Assembly (NCBI GenBank): GCA_000091205.1
Contig: AP006491.2
DNA: 64,000 nucleotides
From: Cyanidioschyzon merolae
Taxonomy: Eukaryota
Direction: 5' to 3' (one strand)
The notes beneath the pieces are model-generated. The model worked only from the letters and a program-made list of their open reading frames with translations. It was not told the DNA's origin and did no database searches. The position numbers and the translations under genes were made by a program. Of the stretch, positions 1,753 to 64,000 are shown one piece after another; position 1 is the stretch's first letter; every line of letters begins with the position of its first letter.

Positions 1753-4700
1753 AGCGCCTTGTCGGTAACGCTACGTTCTTGTGTGAAAATAACCTCTCTC
1801 CTGGAAAACGCTGTACTCGTTGGAAAACCCGGGGTCTCGAGTCACAGACTCGACTGAAGGCCAAGAGACACACTGGCACAAAAAAACGTGTCTTCGTTAC
1901 GCCTGGTCACGTACACGACCGCAGCGGTTCAAGGCGCCCGTGCGAAATGATCCCAGCGGCGCTACACCCCGTAGCGTCCCTGATGCGACAGCAGCAACCA
2001 CAGAAACACACACCTTGGACTCAAGAGCTCACAATGAACAAGTACGCAGGTCGAAAGTCCACGATACCACAGTCTGGCAACGAGACAGCACACACAAGCG
2101 GCAGCGCGAACAAAACGCACACGCTGTCCCTAGAGCTCGGCAGCGCCGGTTACAATTTTTTTTAATTTCATAAAGCGTTGACGAAGGCCGGCATTTCCCG
2201 ATTGACTGCTGGGGCGCTTGATACCAGCGTGCGGAGCAGCATTCATGATTCCACGTCCGACTTCTAAGCTCCATAAGCCATACCGTGTCGTGGGTATACT
2301 GGTTGCTTCGTATATTCTATCGTTTGCTGAGTGCGTGTCCTGATCATCCGCGACACCGCCTATAGCGCCGGTGCGGGCGTAGCACGGCGACAAAACGGCG
2401 TTGCCGTACCTCGGAGGGCGTCTGCTCGAGACGGTAGACAGGTACGCTAGCGCAGCCAGTTGCCCGCCTTTTCTGGCCGGCAGACTGCAGTAGGTTTCAG
2501 CTTGTGCTTGCATACTTCGAGCCTGAGAAGCTGTCCGACAAATCTAGATGGCGGCAGCTCCTTGGGTCCCGTCTTCAGCGCGGCAAAACTCCTGATATAG
2601 ATAGCAGCGTTAAAGTCTCATTTCACAAACTCCATGCGTTTATTGCCGCTGCTCGAGCTGACCAATGGAAGGAGGCATCGGACTCGTGCCCGCTGTGCCA
2701 CTTGGTTCGCTGTCAGCAACTCGTACTTTTCTGTGGCCGAAGGTCTCCGCTGTCTTCTCTCCGTATCGACCCTCTGGCGTGTACATCTGTGCTGATTCCT
2801 TAGATTTTACTTGCTTCATATGAACGCACTTTTTTATGCTCTTAGGTGAAGACCTTCCCCCGGCGAGAGGGACTTGCGGAAGAAAGAAGGCATATGTCCA
2901 AACGTCAGCGTGTGCTAGAAGCCGCAGCGATTCTGTCTGAAGAGCGATCATTACGTTTCAGGACTGAAAACGCTCTTTCGATGGAGTTGAGCCACGGAGA
3001 GTACGAAGGAATGAAAAGCAGCTCTACTCCCGGATAGAATCAGCGAAAAGCTCGAACGCGAAGGGCAATGGTGAAATGCTATGTTGTCCAGTAGAAGGAC
3101 GTCGCCAGACCTGCGGGGAAAAGTCTTCGATCATTCGACGAAAGGGTTGCTGTTGTATGAGCGTTCCCTACGAGCGAAACTCAGGCCGTCAAATGAATCC
3201 ATTCTAGCTAGAACAGATGATGATGTCCTCGTTCTCCTCGAGTTCTACCGAACATTGCACGGGCTCCGTCTCCGCAAATACCCATCTACGCTTCAACCGC
3301 TTCATCCGAAGCAAGTCTCATCGACTGAAACAAACCGACATGACTCCGCTTCATGCTCATCGCGACGTTCCAGCAACGCTATCCTTGCGATTTCGGTGCA
3401 AGATGGTCGCGCGTGAACTACGACTCTTTTTGCGACTATATCCCAGTGTTTTCAGGACGACACGAACAAGCCGTTCAGAAACAGAGACGCCCGTGGTGGC
3501 TGTTACCGTCGCTTTTGCTTTCCATTACATGATCAACGGCTCGTTTTCTATCATTGGCCGAAAGCAGTCTTTCACAGTACCAGTTTCTGGCGCGTGACGC
3601 GTATACTTCTTTCTTTCAGTTTCCCCAACCATCTGAGTGCTGTGGTACATCTGACCTGAATGCGGAATGCAGTCCTCGTTCCACTATTCAGTAAAGAATC
3701 TTTCCTAAAGAAAGTTCGTCGTCAATCTACAATATACATTGCGTAGTGTTTCCGATCTCCTGCAACACACCACGAAAAGCATTCAATTAAATGCAGCGAA
3801 GTTTGAACAATGTTGAGTGGAAACACTATGAACAGGTGGATCTCCTCTGGTCTGGATGCAGCAAGTCGCAGATATGTCGCAGGATGTAACATTTGGTTTC
3901 AGGGAACTGTTATCGAGCTTTGGGACGATTCCAGATCTCCTGAACGCTCTCGATTTGGCATTGTTCTGAATTGTCCATTGCTGCAGCGTATGGACGTGGA
4001 GCCGTTCTCTGAGGAATTCCGATAAAACGCTTTCGAGTGCGTCTCAATTCGACCTAGGCATGAACAGCCGGGGCGTTGGAAGCGCCTCGGAAACGTCAGG
4101 CTGTGTGCAGCATATTAGCATTTGCTTGGGCAGGAAGCAAGGATTCCGCCTCGCATCACCTACATCGAAAGTGATCAAAGCATACAAGCAACGCATTCGC
4201 CAGCTCAAATTCCAAAGTGCCAGCGAATGGACGGCCCAGTCGCGCTGGCGAACCTTGTGCGCAAGCCTCATGAGGAATCCCCAAACCTCTGGCGTATCCT
4301 GGCATCTGCACTTACCGATTCGCTTCACGAACATTCACCCATGCGCCCGCAAGCAAACGCATTCCTGGCAGCAATGCTTTGTATGCGGATATTTCGTTAA
4401 TATCGCAGCTTACAGGTTATCTTTCGCTGCAGCGACAGAACAGGGCATGCCGTGCAGCTCCGGCTGTCGCAAGCTTATTTGCAACCCTTCTCCTGAATCA
4501 CGTATAGGCGACTGCGAACCGGCAACTACAGATTGCAGCTTCCGAGACGCGAACCAGCTTCTAATCGATGCCGGCGACGTTGCTCGCTATCGCACGCTGG
4601 CGGCAGCGCGTACCAGTCTCCCGTCGACGCATGGGGAACGAGCATACGCAATCCAAATGCTCGTGTTTCTGTGCGTCATTTCCAAAATATATAGCTTTGT

Positions 4701-6410: not shown

Positions 6411-8284
6411 GTTACGTAGCCGACGAGCGTACATTGAAGTACATCAGGAGTGCCGGGTTGAGCCCAGATGGAGGCAGAGGGGTACGAGGCCAAGATTGGC
6501 CTTTCGTATGGAGAGAACGAATTAGAGAAATTGGAATCGGGGTAGAATTTCAGGCGATGGAGCTGGTCAATGAATACATTACTTCTCTGAAACGGAAAGA
6601 ATGTCTCTCGGTCGCAGTGCCGAGGCGAGAACGTGTGACGAAAAGCACCAAAGTGAACAACCAGCAGCGAGGGAGACGTGTGCTCCAGTCTCTGGCTTTC
6701 TGCACAGCACTCATTTGCGCCTTTCTGGATTTCCATTATAGTCTTTCACCTTAATTGTATTCCATCATCAGGTGCGTATACTCAAATGCCTTTTCGCATT
6801 TCATAGCCAGAAGTGTTCGGATTGCGTTCATTTTGAAAAAATAAAGAGCCCGATGGAAAGTTACGGACACGAAAGTCGAGGATCCTACAGGGCCATCCTC
6901 GCCAGGTTCCGCTAAAAACCCGAAAAGAATGTTGTTTTTGCCTGTGAACGAGGGAAGAAGAGCAAGTGACAAAGAAGACGAAGATGGAGATGTTGATGGG
7001 TGATAGGCGGGACCAGGTGTTCGCGAGACTCGGCGATAACGAGACTGGAATCGCACTGAGGGCTCGAGCTTTGGCAATTCCTGCATTGATGAGTTCAGCC
7101 ACGGGCAATAAACACAAGGAATTTGTGAATTGAGACTTCAACGCCACCATCATTAGCAGACGCTCTACAGTGCTGAAGACGACGAGACCCGAGGAGCTAC
7201 GGCGATCCGAATACGTGTGGTATCCTCCCAGGCTCGTAGTGAACTGGTAGAAACGGATGCCGATACCAGACTGCCGGTCAAAAATGCAAGGAGTCGTCGG
7301 TGCATGGGTAGATCTATTTATTCACCGTTCTTGTAGAACGTTTTCTGTTTTATTGAGAGCAACGATTATCTTCTGCTGCTGCATCCTCAGCACTTTTCTG
7401 CAGTCACGACAGCAGGCAAGTTTCGGCAGCCGAAAGCGCCCCTGCTGCCGCGTTCTCGATCCGCCATGAAAAAGCGTACGCAGATCATGCGATCCGGACG
7501 AGTGTGCATCTCCGGATGCTTGACTCTAGGTATGCCTATGTATTTGTATGAGTATGTGTGCCAAGAGCTGCAGCGATCTGATCACGAGAGTTACCGCTCC
7601 TCGAAGCTGCATGCGGTACAGCGACGGCTGGTCAAGGCGACAAGCAACCTGCGTACCAGAGGCATACGCTCGTGTACCAGCAGAGAAATTGCGGATGCAG
7701 CCGGGTGTGTACGTTTCAAGCGTTCGTGCACGCTACCAGTGAGCTTGTCGCTTTTGCACCCGACTGAATACAATTGGGGTAACGGACTTACAGGCCTCAT
7801 ACGGGCACTCCAAGTCGCAGATGCCAGCGCACAGGGCCTGCTGGTCGCCGGCCCGTCACACCGCTCGCTGCCTGGAATCGCTTCGTACGCCTTTGCACAC
7901 AGGCAGTGTCGAGGCGAGATCTCCACTAAATTCATGCACTCTACATGGAAACATCAAATGATGCTGCCTGTATGGATCCGAATATCATTTGATGCATCCA
8001 GACATGCTGTCGAATGCGGTGGAAGCACGACGTGTCCGATTTATCTTCCTGGAATGTGCACCAGTGCAGCAAGTACCCGAACGCTTGTTATACGGACGCA
8101 CGCCCTCGCCCGTTTCGTGGCGATGATTCCGTTTCCAGTGGCTAGCAGCGTCATGAGACTGGTATCCTCCCCGAGCGCCGGTTTGCTGAGGTCACTACAT
8201 CCCTTCCGTTCTGCCTGCATCCAGGCAAAACGCGGGCGCACAGCGCCCCCATTTCCACATCCGATACCGACACATCCATCTGGA

Positions 8285-17044: not shown

Positions 17045-19071
17045 ATTGCCAGGTCTCAGCTCGCGCTCGCTGCGTGTCTTCGTGCCGCGCACACACCACA
17101 ACACCAACACGCAGTCAACGTCGCGTGTGGCAGGCATCGCTCGTCGACGCCTACCGTCACGACGCCGCCGGCGATGCGTCGCCGACGCCGCACGCATCGC
17201 GTTTTTGGTGCGTGCATGCGTGCGTGCTGGACGCCCGGCGCTGCGGCATCGAGCATCGTCGACGGTGCAGCGATCGGGGCAGCGAGATGCGGTGCGCGCA
17301 GACCTGGACATCATCGCCTCGGATGCGTCGCGAACGTTCGATTTTTTTCATAGACAAGACGTTTACTTGTGCCAGCTTTCTCCGATTATGCGCATTTATG
17401 TTTTCTTACCTCTTTTGTGTGTTATTTTTTGTGCGCGGTGAGGTATCCATCAAACGTCCTACCTCCAAGTTACATTACCTATACTGATTCTCGGATATTC
17501 TGGTCGTTTCATACGTTCTATCGGGTGCGCTTAGTACCTAACCTAATCATACGCCTTTGGAACTTAACCGCTGGAGCAGATAGTTCATAGAGTTAGGAGG
17601 GCTTTTCCATACCACAGAGGGCGTCGGTTCGAGGCGTGGTTCACCCGACGTAGAACTGGGATTCGTCGTCAGTGTGTGCTCGGACAGTCTGCGGATGCAG
17701 GCTTGCCTTCGCTGCACGACACGCTGGAGAAACTTCACTGTTAGGATATATCGTGGGGGCCGCCTCTCTCCTTCGTGATCATGCATGGAATGCGTTGTTG
17801 TCGGTTGGCAATGCGGGTTTGTGCTCGACACTCATACAGAAGGTAGGCGCAGAAAGCGCACTAAACCCGTGTGCGCATCCGATTCGCTGGACCATCCGCC
17901 TAGAAGGTAGCATGTGAGTTTGTTCGCCACTAGTGAGCGCTGAGGCTCTGTTAGCGGACCATCAGTTGCCAGTGCTGCACTCAAAGTGAGTGTCCGGCCG
18001 TCGACTATCACGGTGATGCCCAGCTGCTGCTGTCCTTCAAGGAGATCGCTGCGCTCCTGCTTTCAGCGCGGCCACTGTAACAGTAAATATGTCAGCGTCT
18101 CGGGGATCTCGTCTCGACAGCAGGGACAGTGTGATTCCCAGTGCGATTCCAGTGCTCCTATCCGGCTTAGAGCCGGTGCTGCTAGTCAGAAACCACCAAC
18201 GTGGATTTTGGCGAGCCACTGGGTACCGCGAGCAAGTCCCGGGAATTCCAGCGCCTCCCACCAGTACTTGCATGTGTATGCTAGGTTGTAGTTCCGGTAT
18301 AGAGTCAAGCCGGCGTTACGGGCGCGACTGGTTCCGTGTCTACGTTCCCATATTGGTGTTCGGACCGTTCGCTTGAGGCGTCTGAAGTCTTCTACATTCC
18401 TGGGGAACGATTGGAGCGGACAGCCTGCTTCTGGGCGTCGCGCTGGTCCGAGTGGACTCCGAGTACGTCGCTTCGTGCTGCTGCAAGCATTAGGTCTGTC
18501 TGCGCAGCTTACTGGCTCCCAGCATGATTATGTAGTCCGAACCCGTATCCAATGAACCACAACTTGAGGCGACGCCCTCACTGGCATGGCAAAGCCGTTC
18601 TGTCTCCGTGCCGCATCTGCTCCAGGGGTGTAAGCGCGATTGCGAATGCTCAAGGAAGGTTACGTGCACAGTGGAATGCACGAAATAACCAGTACATCCG
18701 AAAGGAAGTACAAGTAATGGAACCTGAAGGTAGGGTCCAGCAGCATGATGGGCGCTTTCCCGAATGTCAATACCGATCTATCGCGCAATCTGGCCTCCAT
18801 GGTCCATAGAAGCGCTTTGGCATCGGCGGGAGAACCGGGCGTCGCCCCGCGCTGCGCTCCATGGAACAATGCTCAAATCACGAATAAATTGTACTTTATT
18901 AAATCTGTATGTACTATGATGTACAAAATAGCATTCCAGGAATCCCGAGATCACACACGCGCTCGAGACGTGAACTGTCTCGTCACTCTCGGCTACGGCT
19001 TCATCTTCCTCGTATTTCTTCGCCATTAGATACGAGTGCGGTAAGATTCTGGGCTGAAGTTTTCAATATTA

Positions 19072-24880: not shown

Positions 24881-25126
24881 GGAGCAGGCGAGCGGACCAA
24901 CTCCAACCGGCCTGCGCAGTTTCGCGTACCCCCAGCAGACACTTCGGAAACGCCCGACAAACAGCCGCTCCTGGCGTCCCGGGTGCGAAACGCCTCGCGC
25001 ACACAGACGCGTTCGTGCTGCACACCCGTGTCGACTTGAGCTCGCGGGCGCAACGAAGCCAGCCAGACTCGGTCTCGAATCAGCAAAGAGGTACCCCTCG
25101 CCAAACGCCATTCTTAAGTCGAACGA

Positions 25127-25860
25127 CGCCAGCGGTGTACAGTAGTGGCGACCGGGCCGCCCTAGAAGAAATGTCTCCGACTGATGTGCAGAAGCCTGCC
25201 CGTCTTTTTGGACCGGCCACCTACTACTGCTTCAAACTTTTTCTCATATAGTTTAACTTTGAGCGGTTTTCCAACCAAATTCTCTATCGTCGACCCGAGA
25301 GGTCTTTCCTCTCTCACCGCACATTTCCTTATATTGATTGCGGCGTTAAAGTCTCGGTTCACAAACTCCATACGTTTCTTGCCATTGATTGTACTTACTA
25401 ACGCAAGCAATCCTCGAACTTTCGCTATCCTTTCCATTTGCTCTTCTGTCAGCGGTCCGTACTTTTTTTATATCCTCAGGTCCCCGCTGGCACTTTTCCA
25501 TCTCGACCCTCTGAAGTGTACAGCCCAGTTCATGGTGTGTATACAATGCTCGAAATCCATCTACCGGTATTATAACAAAACGCCGTGCGCACTCCTTATA
25601 CGTTCTCGTCGTGGGATCTGGTGTACACCCTTGTTGGGTCGTCCAGCGCCTTGCTTCGTACGCTACTACGAGCCTTTGACTTTCATCCTCCTTCAAGGCA
25701 CTCAACTCACTGAAAAAAAAATGCGAATGCCCGATACTCCCTACATTATAGATTCATGCGGAGATCAAACTGCCCGCCATCCGAGATTGCATGTACGGAT
25801 CTCAGCGCTCGCGTCGGAAGCATCGGCAGTGGACGAGCGCCTTGTTGTGCACTGCCTGTC
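25127..25860 (-). pseudogene. Inverted, frameshifted fragment of the TnpB/Fanzor-like nuclease 3' region (RuvC-III end) plus its ~160-bp 3' flank
   Basis: Minus-strand ORFs 25346..25705 and 25162..25437 together reproduce [53 protein letters not shown]...PEDIKK...[19 protein letters not shown] from the full copy at 29.5-30.0 kb. They sit in two different frames because of 1-bp indels, and amino-acid identity is about 80%. Homology to the reverse complement of 29480..30132 starts sharply at 25127. Confidence 0.75.
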
Positions 25861-25891
25861 CACTGGACACGCAAGGTACTTTCGTCGGAAC

Positions 25892-27904
25892 ATGGGCGTT
25901 GAGAATGCTTTAGGCGGTTTCATAGTAACGAATACCTTCAGCGGTAGCGGTGTACGTTTCGTCGTACGGAACCGGAGCCAGTGCAACTCGCTGGTGGTGC
26001 CTGGGTTCCGCGCGAGGCGGCGTACGCGCTGCGGAGCACTTGCTCGCGTACGGGGGACAGATTCGGCGCCAGAGGGTACCCCCGACGCCGAAGCGAGGCA
26101 CCGTCCCAAGCCTGGTGAGCGAGGGCTCTTCCCGCTCGTTGCACCGCGTGAGGATATCGGGCGCTATTTCGTTGGAGAGCGTCGGATTTTGGACGAACGC
26201 ACAGCGCGCTATCCGCTACGCTCGACGGTAGAGGAAGTGCTGGCGGGCATTACGGTGGCGATGGCGCTGCTGCCTGCGGCGGTGTCTTGCGCGTTGGCCA
26301 CGGGCGTGCCGCCGCTCGCTGGAATCGTCTCGACTGGTCTCCTGTGTGCGATAACTGCCGCACTGGGAGGACGCCCTGGCATGATCTCAGGAACATCTGC
26401 AGCGCTCATTATTCTGCAAGCGCCTCTCTATCAACAGTACGGCGCAGCAGCGGTCGCTGCCGCCGTGGTGCTCAGCGGTATACTCCAGCTTTTCTTCGGG
26501 ATCTATCGTTTGGGAAAGTTTGTGCGGCTGATATCGTACCCTACCTTTCTGGGATTCATCAGCGGCATCGCCATCTTGACGGCGACAAGTCAGGTCTATG
26601 CGTTTCAGCTTCCAGCGGGAACCGGGCTGAGCCCGGGCGCACCCTGGCTCCAGGGTAACATGTTGCGTGCAGCGTTGATCGTCGCAGCGCTCGCCGCTGG
26701 AGTCGCCCATGTATGGCCCTTGATCATTCAGCGACTACAGCGCCGGCGCCCCGATAGTACCCATCGGTGGCAGCACCGCCTCGCTGAGCTGTTGCGTTGG
26801 CTCCCAAGCCCACTAGCGGGCATCCTCGTGGCATCCATTTATGCGGAGGTGACGCAAGCGCCTGTGCGGCGGCTTGGCGACTTTTTGCGCGACACGCTGG
26901 CACAGTCAGGGGCCATTGGCGTATCCTGGGCAGCCCTGCCGTCAACACCGCTGGCATGGATGGCCATTCTGAGCACCGCGCTTGGTCTCGCATTCATCGG
27001 TCTTTTGGAATCTCTGTTAACCATGACTTTGGTAGACGAAGTCACGGAATCGAGGGGTAGCACGCGTCGGGAGTGTCTAGCGCTTGGGGCAGGGAATATC
27101 GCCGCGGGCTTATTCGGTGGCGTGGGCGGCTGCGGCCTCCTGGGCCAGTCGCTCCTGAACACGAAATCAGGGGGACGCGGGCGTCTCTCTGGACTGACTG
27201 CGGCGCTGTGTCTTCTCGTGTTGGCGAGAAATCCGAGCGGACTGATGATTCGGATTCCCGTCCCAGCCATTGCAAGCCTTATGGTGCTGGTGGCGCTGGG
27301 CTCGTTCGAATGGGCATCGCTGCGCTTGTTTCGTGCCATACCTCTCGCTGATTCGCTGACCATTGTGAGCGTTGCCCTGATGACTGTAGCAACGCGCAAC
27401 GTCGCCCTGGCGGTCCTGTTTGGTGTGGTATTCTCGGCGCTGGTCTTTGCCTATAAAGCGTCGCGACGCATTACCGCCCAGAGCTTTATTTCGGAGGACG
27501 AGCAAACGCGCGGATGGCGGGGATACCGGATTGACGGTCCGCTGTTCTTTGGCACGGCGGAGCGCTTCAGTCGTCTGTTCGACCCAGCACGGGATCGTGC
27601 CGAAGGCCATGAGCACGTGATCATCGACTTCTCTGGTAGCCGCATCTGGGACGCGACAGCGCTAGAGGCGCTAGACTCCCTAGCCCGTCAGTATAGGAGC
27701 TATGGTATTCGGCTGCATCTGTGGGGTCTGTCTCGAGATAGCGCACGTCTGCTGCGCGAGGCACGCGCCTACATCGACGAGAGTGTCACGAACGAGAAAG
27801 CGCTCTACTTGTACGAGCGGGTTGTAGCCGACTATCCCACAAACGATAGTCTAGAGGTTGAGTACGAGCTTTTCGCGAAAAGAGAATCGGGGAATGCAGC
27901 GTAA
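25892..27904 (+). CDS. SulP/SLC26-family sulfate (anion) permease with C-terminal STAS domain
   Basis: VEEVLAGITVAMALLPAAVSCALATGVPPLAGIVSTGLLCAITAALGGRPGMISGTSAALIIL is the SulP N-terminal signature. About 10 further TM segments follow, then a STAS-like end (YRIDGPLFFGTAERF...HVIIDFSGSRIWDATALEAL). The stop is TAA. I chose the start at the ATG at 25892, because the 5' 236 codons of the long ORF are antisense to the Fanzor-like fragment. Confidence 0.8.
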   Translation: MGVENALGGFIVTNTFSGSGVRFVVRNRSQCNSLVVPGFRARRRTRCGALARVRGTDSAPEGTPDAEARHRPKPGERGLFPLVAPREDIGRYFVGERRILDERTARYPLRSTVEEVLAGITVAMALLPAAVSCALATGVPPLAGIVSTGLLCAITAALGGRPGMISGTSAALIILQAPLYQQYGAAAVAAAVVLSGILQLFFGIYRLGKFVRLISYPTFLGFISGIAILTATSQVYAFQLPAGTGLSPGAPWLQGNMLRAALIVAALAAGVAHVWPLIIQRLQRRRPDSTHRWQHRLAELLRWLPSPLAGILVASIYAEVTQAPVRRLGDFLRDTLAQSGAIGVSWAALPSTPLAWMAILSTALGLAFIGLLESLLTMTLVDEVTESRGSTRRECLALGAGNIAAGLFGGVGGCGLLGQSLLNTKSGGRGRLSGLTAALCLLVLARNPSGLMIRIPVPAIASLMVLVALGSFEWASLRLFRAIPLADSLTIVSVALMTVATRNVALAVLFGVVFSALVFAYKASRRITAQSFISEDEQTRGWRGYRIDGPLFFGTAERFSRLFDPARDRAEGHEHVIIDFSGSRIWDATALEALDSLARQYRSYGIRLHLWGLSRDSARLLREARAYIDESVTNEKALYLYERVVADYPTNDSLEVEYELFAKRESGNAA

Positions 27905-28399
27905 AGACAACGGGCATCGCTAGAGGGCATCGCAGAGGAGCAACGGACCCCCGCAGGGCGCGAGCGGGTCGTGCGCTCGCTCCTGTATCATTTTCGGTGC
28001 CGTTTGGTTACATCCGCTTACGCAGATCGATAAGTCGAAACAGACAGCGGTGATTGCCAAGCATCGCGTCGTTCCTGTGCGCCCGAACGGAGATGTTGTC
28101 AGCGTTCCGCTCCGCAACGTTCCATCCATTGCACCGAAGTGCGCCCCGTCGACAACACATTCCAGCGTGGGATCAGGCGCACGAAGTTTCCCTGGCACAG
28201 CAGCAGTGACGGACATCAAAACAGTCGAGGTTTCGGAAGCGTTTTCGACAGGACCTTGATTTGTCGCCTGATGCTTGGCACAGGGGAAACGCGGAGGGGA
28301 AATGAGCGGGTTCATGCCCTCCACGAGAATCACGCCGAGTACCGCCCTGAGGGTACTCGATTCAGGGGTGATTCGGATCTTTAAACCTACGGGACGATC

Positions 28400-30132
28400 A
28401 AGTACCATACGGACCTGAAGAACCATTTGACGATGAACCTCGAACGCTTCATGAAACGCTCCGTCTATGCACTCTACCCGGGCATCGCTCGCAAAGGAAT
28501 ATGGGCGATTATCAATGGCATCACGAAGGATTGCCAGAATGAACAGGAGATCGAATTCTTCGACAAGAAGACATCACGCAGGAGAAAGAATGAAGCTCCT
28601 GTAATCCATTGGGTTATACAAGAGCATCGTGCCGTACTGGGGCTGGCGAACCCAACAGAAAAGTTATCAGAGATGAAAAAAAGATAAGAAAAGATACGAT
28701 CGCCTCATCCTGCGCTATTTCGTGTTCCTGGACCAAGGACTGGAACGCGAGGCATAGATGAAGCTGAGTGAGGAGAAAAATGATGCGTCGGAGAAACGAA
28801 AGGCTTTCCTAATGGGGAAGCACCCTAACGTCGTTCCGTTGAACAACATCGAGTCACACTGTGTGACTATCGACTCCAGAGTCCTTCAAGGCATCATGAA
28901 GGAGATCAGTCCCGAGTTCGATGTTAGCAGGGAGGAGTTCTCCGGTGAAAATCGGGAGATGTACGGGAAGAACATCTTCGATGTCAATCGTCTCAAAGTG
29001 AGCAAATAAAAGGTATTCGCTGGGATGATCGAAACCGATGGAGTAGCCATGTGTGTACAGTATCGGAGGTTGAAGGTGGATCGTCCCATCGCGCCTTGGG
29101 CTTCGCCCGTGACGAAGCATGAAGATAAGATGGAGATGGGCCCTGAAACGTGTAATCCCCAGGATAACGACCTTGTCGTTGGCGCGGACCCCGGGAACAC
29201 GAATATCGTAACCATCGCAGTACCCAAGCGTGCGGAAGATGGCATTGACGGTAACTTGCCTCAGAAAGACATGCGTCTGTTGAGATTCTCGAGAGCGAGA
29301 TACCATCGAGAATCGGGAATCATGAATGCAAGCAAGAAAATCGAGACGTAGAATGCAGGAATGAAAGAGCACCTGGAAGCTATGACCAAGTTGACTAGCC
29401 GAGGAGCGGACTCGGAAGCTTTTCGGAAATTCATGGAAGTTCGTGTTGCTCACTGGAAGGCGCTGTGGAAAGAGTATACAAAGTCCCGGTAGGCTTGTCT
29501 GCGTATGAGTCTATTCCGTGGGATGCAGCGGGCGTTCGCAAACTTTTTCAATGGGTTGAGCGCCTTGAAGGAGGACGCAAGTCAGAGGCTCCTGGTAGCA
29601 CACGGAGCAGGGCGCTGGAAGACCCGAAAAGGATGTACACCAGCTCCAACGACAAGAACGTACATGGAGTGCGCAAGGCGTTTCGTTACGATACCGGTAG
29701 ATGAGTTTCGAGCGTCCTATACGTACCATGAACTGGGGTGTACGCTCCAGAGAGTCGAGATAGAAGAGTGCCAGCGGAGCCCTGAAGATATAAAAAAGTA
29801 CGGACGGCTGGCGGAAGAGCAAATGGAAAGGAGGGCGAATGTTCGAGGACTACTTGCATCAGTAAGAACAACCAATGGCAAGAAACGTATGGATTTTGTG
29901 AACCGAGACTTTAACGCAGCCGTCAATATAAGGAGATGTGCGGTGATGGAAAGAAGACCTCCAGGATGAACAAGAGTGAACTTTGTTGGACAATCATCTA
30001 AAGTGGAACTATATGAGAAAAAGTTGAAACGAGTAGTAGGTGGCCGGTCGAAAAACCTGGGAGGCGTCTGCACATCAGTTGGGGACGTCTTGTCTAGGGC
30101 GGGTTTCCCGCCACTACTGTGCACCGCTGGCG
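28400..30132 (+). mobile_element. TnpB/Fanzor-like (OMEGA-type) element: nuclease gene plus a conserved 3' terminal non-coding region; the left boundary is approximate
   Basis: Sampled stretches here are 53-57% GC, about 4 points below the window average, with A-rich Lys codons. The nuclease ORFs run 28427..29969. The conserved 3' flank 29970..30132 is also present, inverted, at 25127..25290, and homology breaks sharply at 30132. Confidence 0.65.
28427..29969 (+). CDS. TnpB/Fanzor-like RuvC-fold nuclease (putative RNA-guided endonuclease); the reading frame is interrupted, so it is possibly a pseudogene
   Basis: RuvC-I-like motif [17 protein letters not shown] in ORF 29025..29351. C-terminal region [57 protein letters not shown]...[23 protein letters not shown], with the TnpB/Fanzor VDEyRTS-like and RuvC-III DxNAAxNI signatures. 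28758..29969 is a single frame broken by in-frame TAA (29007) and TAG (29349, 29490). The N-terminal Lys-rich ORF 28427..28687 is in another frame. Confidence 0.6.
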
Positions 30133-30222
30133 GCAGCGTTTTTCTTTGAAAGGCGTGCGGTGTGCGCAGCATATCGACATAGTTCGTTATCGTGCACCAT
30201 AGTCTCTGTTCACTGCACCGGC

Positions 30223-38549: not shown

Positions 38550-40583
38550 CTATTCCTCGTCGTCGTTGCCGCGTGGGGTGGTGGTGTGAGCCGCCCGCTC
38601 ACTACCCGGCGTTTTGCCTTTTCGCTTCGCTTTGCGCTCCGTATCGGGAGTCGGTGCGCCGTCCGCGAAAAAGTAGTTTCCGCTAGCCTTTTGCTCCTGA
38701 TCCTTCACGGAGCCATGCTTATTTATCCGAGGTCGCAGATTCGTGGGATCTCGGCGGAACGTGATATCGAGGGCGCGCAAAAACCGATTCATCCCGCTCA
38801 CGAGCGGCTCCGGTGATCGAGCGACGGCTTTGCGAGCTGGCTCGCCTTCGTAGACGATCACTCGATCGGCCAGGTACGTGGCCATGATAAAATCGTGCTC
38901 CACAATAAACGCCGTCTTTTTCGAGTGCAGGATAAATCGCTTGATCACTTTCGCAGCGATGATACGCTGCTCCGAGTCCAGATACGCCGACGGCTCGTCC
39001 AAAAGGTACAGGTCAGCGGGCTTGCCCAGCGCCAACACCAACGCAACCCGTTGGAGTTCACCGCCTGACAGGTGCTTCACTTCCTGATCGAAGAGTTTGT
39101 CCACGGATAACGGCTTCAAAACGTCAGTTTGGAATTGCGGATGTGTGTATGCACTCTGAATTCGCTTGTGCAGAAGCTGCTGCACAGTGCCTTCAAACGA
39201 CGGGGATATCTTCTGCGGCTTGTACGATACATTCAGTTGCGGGATCTCGATGTGTTTCTCGGGATCCGATAGATCGGGATCGGGTTGCAACAGACCCGCG
39301 AGAACGCGAATGAGGGTTGTTTTGCCAGTGCCATTGCGTCCCAGTGCAAGTACGATTTCCGAGTCAGTAAACTCTCCCCGCTCGACATCAAGCACAAAGG
39401 TGCCCAGCGTCTTCCGAAAAGCCGGGTACCCATATCGTCTTTGCTTCTCTGCATCTGCAGCGGCATCAGGCGTCTCGGCACCCTCTGCGATCTTAAAGGT
39501 AAGTTCGGTTTCCCGGAATCGCATGTTTTCCGTCGGTACGAAACCCGCGAGAAATACATTGATGCCCTCCCGCACGGAGAACGGATACGTCACGACACCG
39601 TACGCACCCGGCACGCCGTATAGGACGCAGATGTAATCGGAGAGATAATCTAGCACAGCAAGGTCATGTTCGACGACGAGCACGTAGTTGTCGGTACGAC
39701 ACAGGGAGCGAATGGCTCGGGCGGCTCGCAGACGCTGTCGCACGTCGAGGTACGATGAGGGTTCGTCAAACATGTACGCGTCGGCGCGCTGGAGGCACAC
39801 CATCGCTATCGCGAAGCGCTGCAGTTCACCGCCAGAGAGTTGCGAAACGTCGCGATCGAGCACCTCTTCCAGGTCAAGCATATCGATAACCTCCGCAAGG
39901 CGCTCGGTCTCGTTGCGAGCCGCGAGCAGATCGCGGACCCTGCCTTTCACCGCTTTCGGAATATGGTCTACGTATTGCGGCTTGATCACTGCGCGCAACT
40001 CTTCGCGGAGTATCTTTTCGAAATAGTTTTGCAGCTCGCTTCCCCGAAAGTAGCGAAGTATTTCCGGCCAGTCCGGAGGATTCTTGTAGTTTCCAAGGTT
40101 AGGTTTCAGTTTCGCCGCCAGAATTTTCAACGCTGTCGATTTTCCTTGGCCGTTGCCGCCGACGAGCCCGAGAACCTGGCCGGGGCGCGGCATTGGTAGT
40201 CGGTGCAGCTTAAAAGAGTTTGCCGAGTAGCGGTGCGTCGTCTGCGAGTCCAGATCGGTTGGTAGATTGATGATCTGAATCGCACCAAACGGGCACTTGC
40301 GCACGCAAATTCCACAACCGATGCAGAGTGACTCGGAGATGAGCGCAATGGGCGAGCTTGGCATCACTTCGATGCATAACTTACCGATTCGGTTCACTGG
40401 ACAAGAGCGTTTGCACTCCAGCGCGCACTTACGGGGTTTACAGCGGTCAGCCGACACGATCGCGATGCGAGTCAACTTTTCCTCACCGTTGGTGGAGGAA
40501 GAGGTGGTGGTGGTTGCGGCGGCTGTGGAGTTGGTGCTACTAGCCCCGGCACCGCCACCTGGTCCGCGCTTTCCTGGAGGCAT
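38550..40583 (-). CDS. ABCE1: ABCE1 / RNase L inhibitor (Rli1) ribosome-recycling ATPase
   Basis: N-terminal 4Fe-4S ferredoxin motifs ([25 protein letters not shown]...[22 protein letters not shown]). Two ABC ATPase cassettes ([21 protein letters not shown]...[12 protein letters not shown]...; [19 protein letters not shown]...[12 protein letters not shown]...). The stop is TAG. I chose the start at the ATG at 40583 (MPPGKRG...); the longer ORF upstream looks non-coding. It has a Ser/Thr-rich N-terminal and a basic C-terminal extension. Confidence 0.9.
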
Positions 40584-42444
40584 CCCTGAGGCCCGACTAC
40601 TGCCGCAGACCCAGTGCGTAGAACCGGGGTCGATGCTACTCCGAGAAACATGACCCCAGAGCTGCGCGCTCTGGGAGCAACGATCGCGACGTTGCGGAGC
40701 GGACATATTGAGACAAACATGCGACATGCGGTTGCGAGCCGGCATTGCCGCAGCAGCGTGTTCTGCGCTGGACGGCACGGTACGGGCCTCCTCGAAGGCT
40801 CCCTCGCATCCAAGCAAAAGTTTTGGGCATGCTTAGGATCGTTTACAAGAACTTGGGATCCCCATGGCGCTAAACTTATTTGCATCTGCTCGAAACCTCC
40901 ATGTTCCGCGAGACAGTACCACCTATACTTCCTCGCTGAGAAAATTAGTGGTATCCATGGGAATCGCGTCACTGATCGGCATGAGTCCGTTAAAGCAGCG
41001 CAGTACTGGTGCGGTCGAGAGCGTTTCCTTCCTGGTCTTCTGCGAAGGCATGCGTCTCTGGGTGTACTTTTGCTTTGCAGAGAGGCTGGTCCGTGTTCGG
41101 GGCATAGGAGGCCGATCGACGCTTTGACGAGGTCATCACGTATGGACAACGCGTCGAGTTGGATCTTTGAACTCGACTCGTGGTCGAGAATGGACGCGAG
41201 CGTCACGATTCGGTGCAGGCAATGGAAACGCACTGATGGCTCAGTGCGGATTCCGAAGCATTCTTGGGACAGCGTTGCCTCCTTGGGTGCAGTTCACACG
41301 TCGCTGGCACGACCGACAAAGCGCACATCGACGCGGATCGTGCTCCCAAATCACCGGCGAGTGTAAGGTTGTTCCCGAAAACCCCGAATGTGTGCGTCAC
41401 AATTTTGTTCCTTGCTGCTGGAAGTGAGGCGATGGCGGCTGCAGCGTGTGCGCGCTCGCGTTCAGGGGCGCAGATGCGCTCCCGCCGCGCTGCGACTCGC
41501 CGAAACGATCCCTCCCGGAGCGTTCGCCCGCAGACGCGAAACGATGTGGCGCCCTATCCATAGAAGCAGGACCCCGGGACATTAGGTCTCACGCGTTGCA
41601 GGGTTGTCCCTGAACACGTCACCGAATCGTTGACCGCGCACGGGTCGTTGCGCATTCGCGCGCGTGCGCTCCGCTCGACTCTCGTTCTGCGTGAACGAAC
41701 GGTGCACCAGGGGGCTCCGTTGGGACGCGTCGCCGCCCAACATTCTAGGTGCTTGCCAGCTGTTGGTGCCGGCCTCTGCGTCATGGTCTTGGGAAAGATT
41801 AGCACTCGATGCAAGTCATAAAACAGCTCGATCCCTGCTCCAAGTCGCGTTGCAACAGACCAGTCCCGGGCTTTGGGGCGCGTTCCTCTGTGTCGCGGTG
41901 TCGCTATCCAGCCTACGCATTTTGAACTGTCCAAATATGCAATTGGAGGCACCGCCTGCGTGCGTCTCCTAGACCTGAAAGACGAGCGATCTGCATTGCT
42001 CGTTGCCCGCAGTCAGCAAATTTATTCGCGCCTGCTCCGCCGAATGACTCCACGAAACACAACTGCTTGACGATGACGAAGTGCCAGACATGAACCCGTA
42101 GCACGCACTGCATTCGCTGCAGTGCACGTGAGCGGATCCTGGCGAAGCAGCTGGTACGGCAGGGGGTGGCGGGCGCGCCCTCTCTAGCGGTGCGCAGCGG
42201 TCGCCAGCTGGAATCGCACGGCTCCGTCCGCTATGTCTCATTAGATACATTTATGTACGGTGATGTTCGCTGTCATGCTCCGTCGATGCTCCGGGGGCGC
42301 CCGCACTGCACCCGCGTACAAGTACCCTGGCCGACAAGTACTGCCAACGATTCAGAAAAGCGCTTCGGAGCTGCTTTGTAGACTGGCTTCCAGACACCGC
42401 CAGTTTGGTAAGATTATCACAGTACGGAGAAGAAACCGTAAACG

Positions 42445-42882
42445 ATGGGTGGTGGATTTCCCCGTGGCATTCGCTCCGCAAGAAAGCTGCGCGATCGCCA
42501 TAAGCGCAACCGCTGGGCGGACAAGAAGTATGCGCGCTCGATGTCGGCATCGGCTTTGAAAGCGAACCCGCTCGGCGGCGCATCTCACGCGAAGGGCATC
42601 GTTCTCGAGCGGATAGGAGTGGAAGCAAAGCAACCCAACTCTGCTATTCGAAAGTGTGTGCGAGTGCAACTGATCAAGAACGGAAAGCGGGTGGCTGCTT
42701 TTGTTCCCCGTGACGGTTGCCTCAACTTTATCGACGAGAACGACGAAGTTCTTATTAGCGGTTTCGGAAGAAAAGGACACAGTGTGGGTGATATCCCGGG
42801 TGTGCGCTTTAAGGTCGTGAAAGTGCAGGGTGTCTCGCTTTTGGCACTGTTTAAGGGAAAGAAGGAAAAACCACGCACATAG
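42445..42882 (+). CDS. RPS23: 40S ribosomal protein S23 (uS12)
   Basis: [29 protein letters not shown]...[105 protein letters not shown] is near-identical to eukaryotic RPS23. Single exon, 145 aa, TAG stop. Confidence 0.93.
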
Positions 42883-45728: not shown

Positions 45729-47859
45729 AATTTGAGTTGCGGCCACGGCGCGCTACACGCTTTCCAGAGTCGGTAGCGAGCGTTCTCAGCATGGACTGAG
45801 GTGACTGCGTCCAAGCTGATGTCGCTTTGCAGTTCGCGGAGCTTGTGCGATGGCCCCGGTGGGCCTCACAGAGAAGACGGCGGGAGAGTCGATGTTGGCA
45901 GGCCAGTGCGCGGCGCGAAAAACCGCCACCTGGACGGGGATGACGCTAGACGCTGCGCCCTGCACCGCATGCTGGCAGATCGGGTACCCGCTGGGGATTC
46001 AGGGTTCGCACTGAGCATCATTCGTTGGACAAGGAGCGCCGACTTGTGTCATGGGGCACGTTTCGCCCCGAACGATGCCGCGCTCCGTTGCTAGGTTTCT
46101 GTTTTAAAGCATCAAGAAACGGTCGGAACGAGAAACTCGTGACGACGCGTGGGTAGTTGACCGACACGAGCCCCTTAGCTGCCGCGCGGTTCGCGTCGAA
46201 GCCGCCCGTTCCAGAACCGAGTGCCGCCATCGACCAGAGCAGAAAACCTCGCAGGCTTTCGGGGATAAGCGCACCGTTGCGCCACCGTCGGCGCTTGTCT
46301 TCGTCAGCGTCAGAGCAGTGAATTCCGGAATGCCTGTGTTAGCACGCCCTTTTTGCCGTTGCATGTCTCGTGCGCAGATTCCAACACCATGAATGAATCC
46401 TCTGGAGGGCCGCAGAGAGACTGCGTGTTATCACTGCTAGCTTGCGCAAAATGCTCGCACGTGTGCAAGTCAGTTTTTCCACGGGCAGCACGTGGATCAG
46501 TCGCCATGCTTGTAGCGCTCATGTGGAACGTCAAGCACCGAAAACGAAACGTACCCAACAGTTTCTATACGACTGTATGCTCGTCAAATCATCCGGCTCC
46601 CTATGTTCTTCGATGAAACACTGTAAAAGATGCCGCAAGATCTTGAGGTTCCGTACTGTAGACAGGACCGGCAATGAAGAAACATAGACAGACAAAAGGA
46701 AAAGCGCGCGTCTGCCGGAGAACGCCGCGCGTTGAACGACGCATGATCAGTTCCGTCCTGAAAAGCGAACGCCTGTTATCGAAGGGCCTGGTGGTCATCT
46801 CAAGCGATGAGACTCGATTCAGCGGAAATAGTAGACCTGAATACGGGTACCCACAGAAGAGCAGACCGCACATCCTTAAAAGTGCCCAGCGAGCATTCCG
46901 TCAAAATCAGTCCCAGCGGCGATTCAATCTTGTAGATGGGTGCAAATCACCAAACGGGCAGGATTCTTTGAGATCGCATCTTTCATTGAATCACCTTGTC
47001 GTCGCTCTTTCCCTTATTCTTCTGTTCTGCTGCCAGATAACTTTCCAACATTCAACTGCGGCTGCAGAACACGCAGCTGAGCTCGGCAACGAGCTGCTCT
47101 TCGTGTCAACTGCTTCTCCCTGGTCCAATCCAGTCGAAGCCGTCTTCGCTGGTGTCAAACGCCATTTATACGCTAACCGATCAACAGATAAGTCGTTCTC
47201 TACCCTCACCAGCCCTGTAGTGCTGTTTATCTCCACTGTTCTTGCGCAGGCGGGAGCGGAAAGACCCGCTCCACACTGTGGGCATACTCATCACGTTGAG
47301 AGTGAAGAAAGGCACTGGAGTATTGATAGGCACAAACGCGCATCGAAGAGGCGAGCTTTGGAAACACCGTCCATCCAGTACGTCCGAACCCCGAGGGAAG
47401 ACACAAGTACAGAGTATACCAACCAAAACAATACATCCCAGCCAAGTAGAGGAGAGGGCGAAGGAGCTGGTCTCTGTAACCAAGCACGAAGCATTCGAGC
47501 AACACCGCGAGTAGCATTGGCAGAACTGGTTCAAGGTCTCTCGTTTACAGTGACGATGGAGACAGACACGATATGCATCTGCTTGCACTGGGTGAACCAT
47601 TCTCCTGAAATGAGCAAATCGATTCATGTTCAAATGCTCCCGGTACATGAAGACGGAGACTTGTCGATGAGCGTAGATTCCGGCTAAAAAAGGCGTCATG
47701 GCCGTCGTCGTATCCCCAAATGAAGAGGACTGAGCCACAGACTTGGATGGTGAGCAGATGAAGCGGCTCAGCAATTCCAGGAATCCGTGGTACAGTCTGT
47801 CGGGCATGATGAACCCCGGGAGACATTCCACCACTTCGAATGACGGCGACAGGACCCGC

Positions 47860-48300
47860 TCGCCGTTCTCGGGCCTCTGAACATCGCATCGAACAGGATT
47901 GGATGCTTTATATGCTTTTGTCGGCGGGTAAAGTAATGGATCATATAGATGATCTTCGGTCGGCGTCCATGAAGCCACACGTATGTCGGCGACAGTTTCA
48001 GTCGTCCAGAGGCCAGCAGCGTGCAGTCGTCAATGTCTTGCATGCAATGAATAAGAAAACGACCGAAAAGTCGTATCGTTTCCTGGTAGCATATGGCGCT
48101 GGACGTGCCGTAGCGCGCAAGGGCTGCACTCCTGCTCCGCCCGGACCAGAGCATTTAAGGTGTGTAGGAAAGGATTCTTTACGATTCCAACCGAACCGCT
48201 CAGGATGACATGTGCGCATCACGAGCACGAGTACAAGCAGAGACTCGTAAAGAGAAAGCAGATGAAACAGCGCGGGGTGCCTTTTGTGGTATACGGTGCG
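47860..48300 (+). pseudogene. Third, heavily degraded fragment of the TnpB/Fanzor-like nuclease gene
   Basis: ORF 47840..48208 contains [50 protein letters not shown]. This parallels [49 protein letters not shown] in the 29.5-kb copy. ORF 48160.. continues frameshifted with FTIPTEP.RMTCAHHEHEY, matching [20 protein letters not shown]. Confidence 0.45.
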
Positions 48301-49060
48301 CTCACCGAACGTCAGATGGAAGGCCAGTCACAGCGGAGAGGCCTGCCCTGCAGCGATTCCGCCAGCAACCGTGCGCGCACGCATCTACCGCTTCGAGATT
48401 TGAACGCCCCGAGCAGCGTTGGGAAACGCCTTGGAATTCCGAAGTATCCAGCTGCTCTACCTCAAGCGAACTTTCCATGGCATCGTTTAGGACTCCATGC
48501 AGGCATCGTACTGAATCACCGAAGACTTTCGATGGAAACAACTCAGTCGCAAGTGGGGACAGGGCTGGATGCTCGCGTGCAGCTCGGCACTCGAATGCCA
48601 CAATCCAGCAATGCATCGAGGCTGGAGTGCTGCACGCAAGGATCTACACAGGGAACAATGGCCCGGTGCACTTGATCAGACATCATCGTGTCCGACAATT
48701 CGATACGTTTGCGTATGTGCGTCGACCGTTGCCGTAAATGGATTATATACGCGTCTTGATGACAAGCTGACGCATGTTGTCCAGATGCAGGTCGAGATGC
48801 CTGCTCGCGAATCCCGATATGTCTCTACCGTTGACGCCGTGGCAAGCGCGCCTCCGCAGCGATGCACGGATGCTGCGTGTGCGTGGCACGCATCCGTCAC
48901 GTGACATCATCCGTGTATCGCGGTGCGTGGCAGCACTCTGTGGACACGACGACGCGGGATGCACATGCATCCCGGCGTTTGCTTCGGATGTCTATAGAGC
49001 GTCCGTTTTTTTCGTCTTTTATCGATAGGTGAGTCTGGATCGGATGCTGAACCTGGGCCT

Positions 49061-63237: not shown

Positions 63238-64000
63238 CCCGTGAGCATTGAGTACGAGTATCCCACCTGAATCCCGAAACGAAACAAGGCGGACGCGGGA
63301 TGGGAAGGTTCCACGGGAGGCGGGGCGCTCGTCAGGAGCGTCTCACGCAGGGCACGGCACAGCACAAGCGCTCGTGCATGAACAGCACCGCCCGCGTCTT
63401 CTTGGTAGTACGAGGTCTCGCGTACCTGAGGCGCACGCGAGTCCACTGATTCGCGCACCTCGTCACTGGTGGATCCCGAGCAAACGCCTGCGTCAGGAAT
63501 CAGCGGTACATGCGATAAACGTCCACCGAGGAGCGACTCGGCACCCGAGAACCAGCCTCAAAACCACGTTTCCCGAATCGTCGTGCAGCGCTGGCATGCA
63601 TGCAGCCATGCGTCGTAGTCTTGTGGAGCAGAAACTGACGACAGGATCCCGCCCTGCATCGGGTTGGCGCCCTCAGTTGTATGGCAGCGCTGTTCTGTTT
63701 CCGTGATGCATCGGCCCCAGCGTTTGAGGCGCCATTACTGGTGCCCAAAGCAGGCACTCGGCGCACATTAGAGCGAACAAAACGACCAGTGCATCCGAAA
63801 GGAAGTACAAGTAACGGAACTTGGAGGTAGATGCGTCACGATGGACACATTCTCCAAATCCAGCATCCGTCCGGCAGTCTGGGATCCGTGGTCAATTACA
63901 GACGTTTTGTCATCGAAGTAAATCAGCGCACGCACACGCACGCTCGTATCCTGCAGCGCATGGACCGGGGCGCTGTGTGCCGGGTGTCGCCGCCAATGCG

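Follow-up and report, generated by a model that had tools for sequence, protein, structure and literature searches.

In a 64,000-nucleotide stretch of the Cyanidioschyzon merolae genome (contig AP006491.2), referred to here as the window, a nuclease-like reading frame at 28758-29969 is interrupted by three in-frame stop codons. Such a frame could represent a gene that was inactivated very recently, a gene whose stops are spliced out or read through, a sequence error, or simply a decayed remnant. We favor the last of these explanations, with a probability of about 0.93: the region 28206-30157 is most probably a dead, 5'-truncated copy of a CMe-1A Fanzor1 element of Cyanidioschyzon merolae 10D that decayed by ordinary mutations. 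The RPS23 protein encoded in the window is identical to that of C. merolae 10D (BAM79962.1). Assignment to CMe-1A fits the published description of this family and was made by elimination, as it is the single Fanzor1 family listed for C. merolae (PMC3627910).

Origin of the three stops

Translation of 28758-29969 in frame 1 gave 403 nuclease-like codons closed by TGA at 29967-29969, with exactly three internal stops: TAA at 29007, TAG at 29349 and TAG at 29490. When the window translation was compared with metagenome proteins, the best of 202 database homologs had E = 9e-190, and therefore the coding homology is real rather than a chance match. Relatives aligned continuously through 29007, 29349 and 29490 in tblastn searches, with no gaps at the stops, and within this interval lengths differed only in-frame, in an acidic repeat of variable size and by one codon. 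Retranslation and these alignments bear out the description given in an earlier note on this DNA, which had recognized a single frame with three stops and no indels between 28758 and 29969. The boundaries proposed there did not hold. The ATG at 28758, interpreted there as the start codon, specifies an internal Met and directly follows an in-frame TAG (28755), and the TGA at 29967, which had been taken as the natural stop, is a sense codon (TGG or TCG) in most relatives, whose homology to the window runs on to approximately 30097.

Codons at the stop positions were surveyed in 42 full-length copies and in two same-species paralogs, L088 and L089. The 42 copies, which also provided the family consensus, came from related organisms represented in metagenomes rather than from the C. 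merolae genome. The paralogs came from an ENA assembly of an organism whose contig L087 matches the window with 99.4% identity across 5.5 kb; together with the partial orthologous copy on L087, they made up the same-species comparison set. At 29007-29009 (plus strand, as for all parts of the element and its remnants below unless stated otherwise), the in-frame TAA replaces Gln: the 42 copies had CAA (36), CAG (2), CGA (2) or GAA (2) and never a stop, and L088 and L089 had CAA and CAG, respectively. Both TAG codons replace Trp, with TGG found in 32 of the 42 copies at 29349-29351, in 36 of them at 29490-29492, and in both paralogs at either site. In protein alignments, the Gln and both Trp residues showed little or no variation; the Gln (Q233) was invariant in the family protein alignment, and the Trp at the 29349 codon (W372) was invariant across 78 distant Fanzor1 relatives. 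These comparisons established the ancestral codons. The three stops are thus private nonsense mutations, and each differs from its ancestral codon by a single base (CAA>TAA, TGG>TAG and TGG>TAG).

It had previously been proposed that the stops were point mutations of sense codons, and that comparison with other copies would reveal whether they were shared or private. The predominance of sense codons in the 42 copies and both paralogs agrees with this proposal and identifies the stops as private nonsense. Alignment of a degraded copy at 47.9 kb, which had been reported to read through the position equivalent to 29490, confirmed that report as well. Stop positions shared or conserved within the family, which could have hinted at recoding, were not found; stops were scattered across copies, and where small groups did have a stop in common, the loci were near-duplicates or a Trp codon had been hit more than once. 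At the 29349 codon, isolated independent stops were also present in two other copies (L061 and L019).

We also considered a RIP-like or deaminase-like mutational bias as a source of the stops, and this idea was rejected. The Ts/Tv ratio was 1.3 with no C>T bias: among substitutions in the window copy, C>T plus G>A changes (61) were about as frequent as T>C plus A>G changes (70), similar to other copies.

The sense codons found in relatives and paralogs therefore exclude both micro-introns and readthrough, to each of which we assign a negligible probability. Removal of the stops by micro-introns, with a full-length protein still being made, is favored by the preserved frame and nothing else. 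The relatives were gapless across each stop and carried sense codons exactly at these sites, so that nothing would be spliced from the intact relatives, and upstream frameshifts and loss of the start codon would block translation of the window copy in any case. For programmed readthrough or recoding of TAA and TAG, we found no supporting point. As the earlier note had pointed out, TAG is a genuine stop in this genome; it is the ordinary terminator of the host genes for ABCE1 (38550-40745, minus strand) and RPS23 (42445-42882). The stops in question were not conserved in the family, and the other lesions described below would remain even if they were read through. Known readthrough contexts include UAG-CARYYA and UGA-CUAG, and the 3' contexts observed here (TAA-AAG, TAG-AAT and TAG-GCT) were unlike these.

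Repeat copies are prone to mis-assembly, and the stops could in principle be sequencing or assembly errors in the reference. An independent metagenome assembly makes this extremely improbable. Its contig k141_1384240 (ENA ERZ27247228; L087) is 99.4% identical to the window over 5,539 bp, covers it from 29286 on, and carries the same TAG at 29349, TAG at 29490 and TGA at 29967, which therefore rules out sequencing error for these three positions; 29007 lies outside its coverage.

Extent and decay of the element copy

DNA comparison with 82 related loci defined the boundaries of the element. The left edge of homology was sharp at 28205-28210 in 67 of these loci, and the right edge was located at 30132-30163, near 30157. 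The copy in the window, a Fanzor1-bearing element at 28206-30157, thus corresponds approximately to positions 575-2674 of the consensus of the 42 full-length copies, to which it is 85-87% identical. Full-length relatives are 2.5-2.9 kb and reach approximately 575 bp further in the 5' direction; the window copy begins at consensus position 575 and lacks this segment, start codon included. The same-species paralog L089 is full length, and therefore the 5' truncation is specific to the window copy.

By tblastn, the coding remnant occupied 28206-30097 and was distributed over three frames without a start codon, as expected of a Fanzor1 pseudogene. When the related proteins P0001, P0010 and P0002 were aligned with the window, the match lay in frame +2 for residues 1-124 and moved to frame +3 for residues 123-586. 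The N-terminal 124 residues corresponded to 28310-28681, in a frame different from that of 28758-29969. Related proteins reach 593 aa, and the stop of the consensus ORF (TAG) aligned at 30095-30097.

Six lesions were identified in addition to the three stops that raised the question: the 5' loss, two frameshifts and three further stops. A -1 frameshift, in which one T is missing from a T run, was located near 28245 (28242-28247; GCGTT-TTCGAC in the window versus GAGTTTTTCGAC in relatives), and here the coding sequence switches between the frame of 28206 and that of 28208. A +1 frameshift resulted from a run of seven A residues at 28676-28682, which is A6 in relatives. At 28382-28384, an in-frame TAA replaces a Tyr codon that is TAC in both paralogs. 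The TAG at 28755-28757 replaces Glu, whose codon is GAG in L088, L089 and 33 of the 42 copies, and GAA in a further 7. Finally, the TGA at 29967-29969 occupies a codon that was a stop in 9 of 42 copies. The proposal that the frame was otherwise preserved therefore did not survive, since the truncation, both frameshifts and three more stops are situated outside the interval in which the original three were noted. With no start codon or N-terminal region, two homopolymer frameshifts and six in-frame stops, the window copy is unable to make the protein and is not a functional member of its family.

These lesions bear directly on the interpretation preferred in the earlier note, namely that an otherwise intact nuclease gene was inactivated very recently by three point mutations. 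Each of the three stops is indeed a single-base change from a sense codon, no frameshift is present within 28758-29969, and the catalytic motifs are intact. However, the extra lesions refute this interpretation for practical purposes, and we regard it as highly improbable. In addition, the window copy is approximately 13-15% diverged from the consensus, and the stops at 29349 and 29490 are shared with the sister strain bearing L087, which is 0.4-0.6% diverged from the window. The pN/pS of the window copy relative to the consensus (0.46) was the highest among 43 copies and is likewise at odds with very recent inactivation. What stands of the earlier interpretation is the origin of the stops by point mutation; the very recent date and the otherwise intact frame do not.

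Several observations spoke against a recent date and were consistent with decay of the copy by drift. Between the two strains, the element differed by 1.83% compared with 0.39% for flanking host DNA (p = 2e-5), part of which could be assembly noise, as the contig ends inside the repeat. The 14 inter-strain substitutions listed in the element alignment were distributed 6/3/5 over codon positions 1/2/3, and therefore indicate no coding constraint. Relative to the consensus, the window copy had accumulated 5 stops and 3 frameshifts in 564 aligned codons. In simulations, 108-216 unselected substitutions (half to all of the 216 observed differences) produced a mean of 3.6-6.7 stops, a range that includes the five observed. 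Identity to same-species paralogs was only approximately 80%, and nearly every other copy of the family also had stops or frameshifts, at scattered positions. Two points count against decay. The remnant has kept its catalytic D/E/D residues, so that its RuvC half is not extremely decayed, and a pN/pS of 0.46 is not close to 1, although much of the divergence is older than the inactivation. An orthologous insertion that could date the event was sought in Cyanidiococcus and in metagenome relatives and was absent there. Taken as a dead and decaying CMe-1A copy, the element would have built up its stops in the absence of selection, as appears to have happened at other positions in nearly all other copies, and we infer that neutral drift caused them.

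Fanzor1 homology, active site and 3' region

A profile built from 78 relatives, some of which were 70-78% identical to the window translation, matched the PDB sequences of PpFz1 (9cf0, E = 3e-22) and SpuFz1 (8gkh, E = 3e-15), with no significant PDB match beyond Fanzor1. These matches established the identity of the family. Distant relatives were obtained in a search of 1.84 billion representative proteins, which yielded 1,468 sequences, many of them 600-700 aa. A shallow family profile of 12 sequences retrieved nothing relevant from the PDB sequences, and a Pfam-A scan with the window translation and intact relatives gave no match. Sub-threshold matches to PF07282 (Cas12f1-like TNB) were seen in distant relatives only, and DUF8286 was the sole domain tag of the homologs.

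Structure comparison led to the same assignment. An AlphaFold (AF2) model of P0001, an intact relative 70% identical to the window translation, had a pLDDT of 85.1 and a pTM of 0.79; an earlier model based on a shallow alignment (pLDDT 43) was left out of the fold search. In a Foldseek search of the PDB with the P0001 model, the top seven hits were all Fanzors (SpuFz, PpFz and GtFz), and Cas12 and TnpB ranked next; the match to SpuFz had a TM score of 0.62-0.64 and E = 6e-14. It is the P0001 model, not the broken window sequence, that displays the Fanzor/TnpB fold with REC, WED, split RuvC and inserted zinc-finger/TNB parts.

Fanzors have a rearranged RuvC site composed of an Asp, an inert residue where the canonical RuvC-II Glu would be, an alternative Glu further downstream, and a second Asp (PMC10530073). 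Corresponding residues were found in the window copy. The RuvC-I motif DPGNTNI (29187-29207) retains the catalytic Asp, D318, which was invariant in the 78 relatives, and the degenerate canonical RuvC-II motif VAHGAGRW (29595-29618) has Gly in place of Glu (G457, also invariant). The VDEFRAS motif (29697-29717) contains the putative alternative catalytic Glu, E490, likewise invariant, and aligns with DEFRTS of PpFz1 and DEYKTS of SpuFz1. A RuvC-III motif of 10 residues (29901-29930) contains D559, which was nearly invariant. Alignment to SpuFz and PpFz suggests catalytic roles for these residues, and the active site of the window family is probably the rearranged RuvC site of Fanzors. At the other end of the protein, the family consensus begins with ATG and a basic tract (MKKQVDDPGG...KKRKRRR) that might serve as a nuclear localization signal, the tract being out of frame with the downstream coding sequence; this region is absent from the window copy.

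Intact Fanzor1 proteins are RNA-guided DNA endonucleases, and their guide RNA is transcribed from a segment that comprises the 3' end of the ORF as well as the transposon right end (PMC10432273, PMC10530073, PMC11423790). An intact member of the window family would accordingly act as a TnpB-like single-RuvC endonuclease, and its omega/fRNA guide would be transcribed from the element's 3' end together with the neighboring flank. The last 180 nt or so of the element were strongly conserved in 48 copies. This 3'-terminal region (29975-30157) overlaps the last part of the ORF, and we consider it a candidate for both the omega/fRNA scaffold and the transposon right end. Together with the catalytic motifs, it is retained in the window copy. 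Stems were drawn by hand at 30060-30091 and 30097-30112, with a terminal hairpin at 30137-30155. In these stems, 78% of cells paired compared with 42-57% in slid controls; shuffle controls were marginal (31-87/500) and covariation was weak. RNAalifold predicted 10 pairs with no compensatory changes, the single-sequence fold was no better than shuffles (MFE z-score -0.29), and an Rfam search of the 3' region gave no match. We therefore refer to the 3' end as a candidate omega RNA only.

Palindromes were detected near both element ends (GCGCTCAGTGAGCGC on the left and CGTTCGA-CTT-TCGAACG on the right), and no inverted termini were seen there. Among approximately 80 family loci, no TnpA-like ORF was found in or beside the element, and the surrounding gene calls were host genes.

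Other remnants and comparison with known systems

Four additional remnants of the family were found in the window. The second remnant is inverted (25101-25764, minus strand) and consists of only the 3' 660 bp of the element (consensus positions 2014-2674) with the right end pointing outward; it is 81% identical to 29498-30132 and 86% identical to the consensus, and contains frameshifts. A third, degraded 3' fragment lies at 2528-2785 (minus strand), and a very degraded C-terminal fragment, the fifth, at 6870-7208, both with homology to the CMe-1A family. The heavily degraded fourth copy (47680-48430), which is the copy at 47.9 kb mentioned above and had been counted as the third, showed 22-34% identity in tblastn with many stops and frame changes.

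The inverted second remnant (25101-25764) and the main copy (28206-30157) flank a gene for the sulfate permease SulP (25892-27904), with right ends directed outward on both sides. A block of approximately 5 kb containing SulP and the remnants is missing from the otherwise conserved CYTH-RCC2 interval of Cyanidiococcus yangmingshanensis and of one metagenome relative, in which this interval is approximately 1 kb and contains neither SulP nor Fanzor sequence. SulP is located on a different chromosome in Cyanidiococcus, in the metagenome relative and in Cyanidium.

By itself, the interrupted frame has little significance: it belongs to one of approximately 150 decayed copies catalogued in 2013, and broken ORFs are what one expects of transposons. 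For annotation, 28206-30157 should be masked as a transposon pseudogene instead of being called as ORFs of 83, 108, 43 and 154 aa. The reconstructed consensus and the approximately 80 related loci could help in the search for a thermo-acidophilic Fanzor1 that is intact and might serve in genome editing. Whether Fanzor elements alter the order of genes in Cyanidiales is a question for which the break in synteny at SulP offers a specific test case. One could speculate, although we consider it rather unlikely, that Fanzor elements relocated this host gene: they might have moved it in the manner of a composite transposon, or the nuclease or the repeats might have driven ectopic recombination. If true, the event would have taken place in a genome that ranks among the most compact of eukaryotes, and dead copies may still provide right-end guide RNA or promoter function to their neighbors.

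Among known systems, the closest counterpart is CMe-1A itself. [quoted passage not shown] They characterized it as an old family of elements of approximately 3 kb in which TIRs and clear TSDs are absent and some intact copies still occur. The window element agrees with this description in organism, Fanzor1 class, identity of approximately 80% to same-species paralogs, full-length relatives of 2.5-2.9 kb and lack of TIRs; the comparison was made with the published description rather than with the Repbase consensus. It differs in that it lacks the 5' segment of approximately 575 bp, which corresponds approximately to the part shared with TE-N2_CMe (PMC3627910), and in that it is among the broken copies instead of those still intact. 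The copy thus represents, in broken form, a family that had been known from the C. merolae genome, and its stops are nothing unusual.

SpuFz1 and PpFz1 (PDB 8gkh and 9cf0; Saito et al. 2023, PMC10432273; Xu et al. 2024, PMC11423790) share profile homology and the same fold with the window family. They also share the DPG...DEF(R/K)TS...NRD.NAA motifs with Gly at the canonical RuvC-II position, and the end of the family's ORF likewise overlaps a conserved 3' non-coding region at the right end. However, sequence identity is only 14-16%, RNA guidance and cleavage are predicted for the window family by analogy with these enzymes, and the window copy is a pseudogene.

More distantly, IS200/IS605-type elements that contain TnpB only (e.g., ISDra2 TnpB, PDB 8h1j) resemble the window family in having a single-RuvC nuclease of the same superfamily (a Foldseek hit), no TIRs and, possibly, short palindromes near both ends. 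In contrast to these elements, the window family has no TnpA in or beside any copy, its protein is much larger and has N-terminal extensions of eukaryotic type, which may include an NLS-like KKRKRRR tract, and its host is a eukaryote.

A sulfate permease gene among transposon remnants

The gene for the sulfate permease SulP occupies 25892-27904 on the plus strand and is flanked by the host genes CYTH and RCC2. Within 25101-30157 it is enclosed by two Fanzor1 remnants that are inverted relative to each other and have outward-facing right ends. The CYTH-RCC2 gap of Cyanidiococcus yangmingshanensis (L083) is only about 1 kb long, as is that of a metagenome relative (L084), and both gaps lack SulP and Fanzor sequence. 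SulP of Cyanidiococcus (L085) is flanked instead by UQ_con and DUF155 genes, as it is in another metagenome relative (L086), and neither locus has a Fanzor close by. Placement by gene names put SulP and RCC2 on different chromosomes in Cyanidiococcus and Cyanidium. SulP thus looks like a host gene that was relocated in one lineage, in association with transposon remnants.

SulP and RCC2 both begin close to element ends. The inferred RCC2 start codon (30223) is located approximately 66 bp downstream of the right end of the dead Fanzor1 element (30157), and approximately 128 bp separate the SulP start (25892) from the inner end (25764) of the inverted fragment upstream of it. Given these spacings, promoters or 5′-UTRs of RCC2 and SulP must lie inside or directly beside transposon sequence. 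With regard to ancestry, the best SulP matches outside Cyanidiophyceae were bacterial, mostly gammaproteobacterial, with about 40% identity, which suggests that SulP of this algal lineage has an old bacterial origin.

The 5′ module and a second dispersed repeat

Full-length copies of the Fanzor1 family contain a 5′ module (e.g., 1084-1760 in L001 and 5021-5700 in L002, both related loci). In the consensus, a single ATG is followed by a basic, NLS-like tract (MKKQVDDPGG...KKRKRRR), and the frame of this ATG and tract differs from the conserved downstream coding frame. The mismatch may stem from a frameshift or a short intron, or from an indel error of the consensus at A-rich runs. Across the 42 full-length metagenome copies, no ORF covered the element from end to end, and the longest ORF measured 593 aa.

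The window also carries, at 2295-2433, 17458-17649, 18425-18826 and 63668-63915, a dispersed repeat that has no relation to the Fanzor ORF. It matches DNA that immediately precedes the Fanzor copies of L002 and of two same-species paralogs (L088 and L089). The repeat may represent another transposon family of C. merolae, besides the Fanzor1 family.

Element ends and truncation

In about 15 metagenome copies (e.g., L019, L022, L027, L038, L041 and L059), an identical stretch of 40 nt (tccttcatcgatcggtg.ggcgtctcgcgcggtgcacgca) abuts the common left end, and further groups of copies have left flanks that are common within the group and unlike this stretch. Either the true left end is subfamily-dependent or the element prefers inserting into another repeat. 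The 3′ flank of Fanzor1-family copies often opens with TTTG, TTCG or TTGAT.

Family fragments and truncated copies occurred both in the window (2528-2785, 6870-7208, 25101-25764 and 47680-48430) and outside it (L011, L034, L088 and others). Nearly all of them kept the 3′ end and lacked the 5′ end, with variable 5′ breakpoints (consensus positions 435, 575, 2014 and others). Because truncation is asymmetric in this way, the pattern of surviving sequence hints that copying or insertion of the Fanzor1 element may start from its right end.
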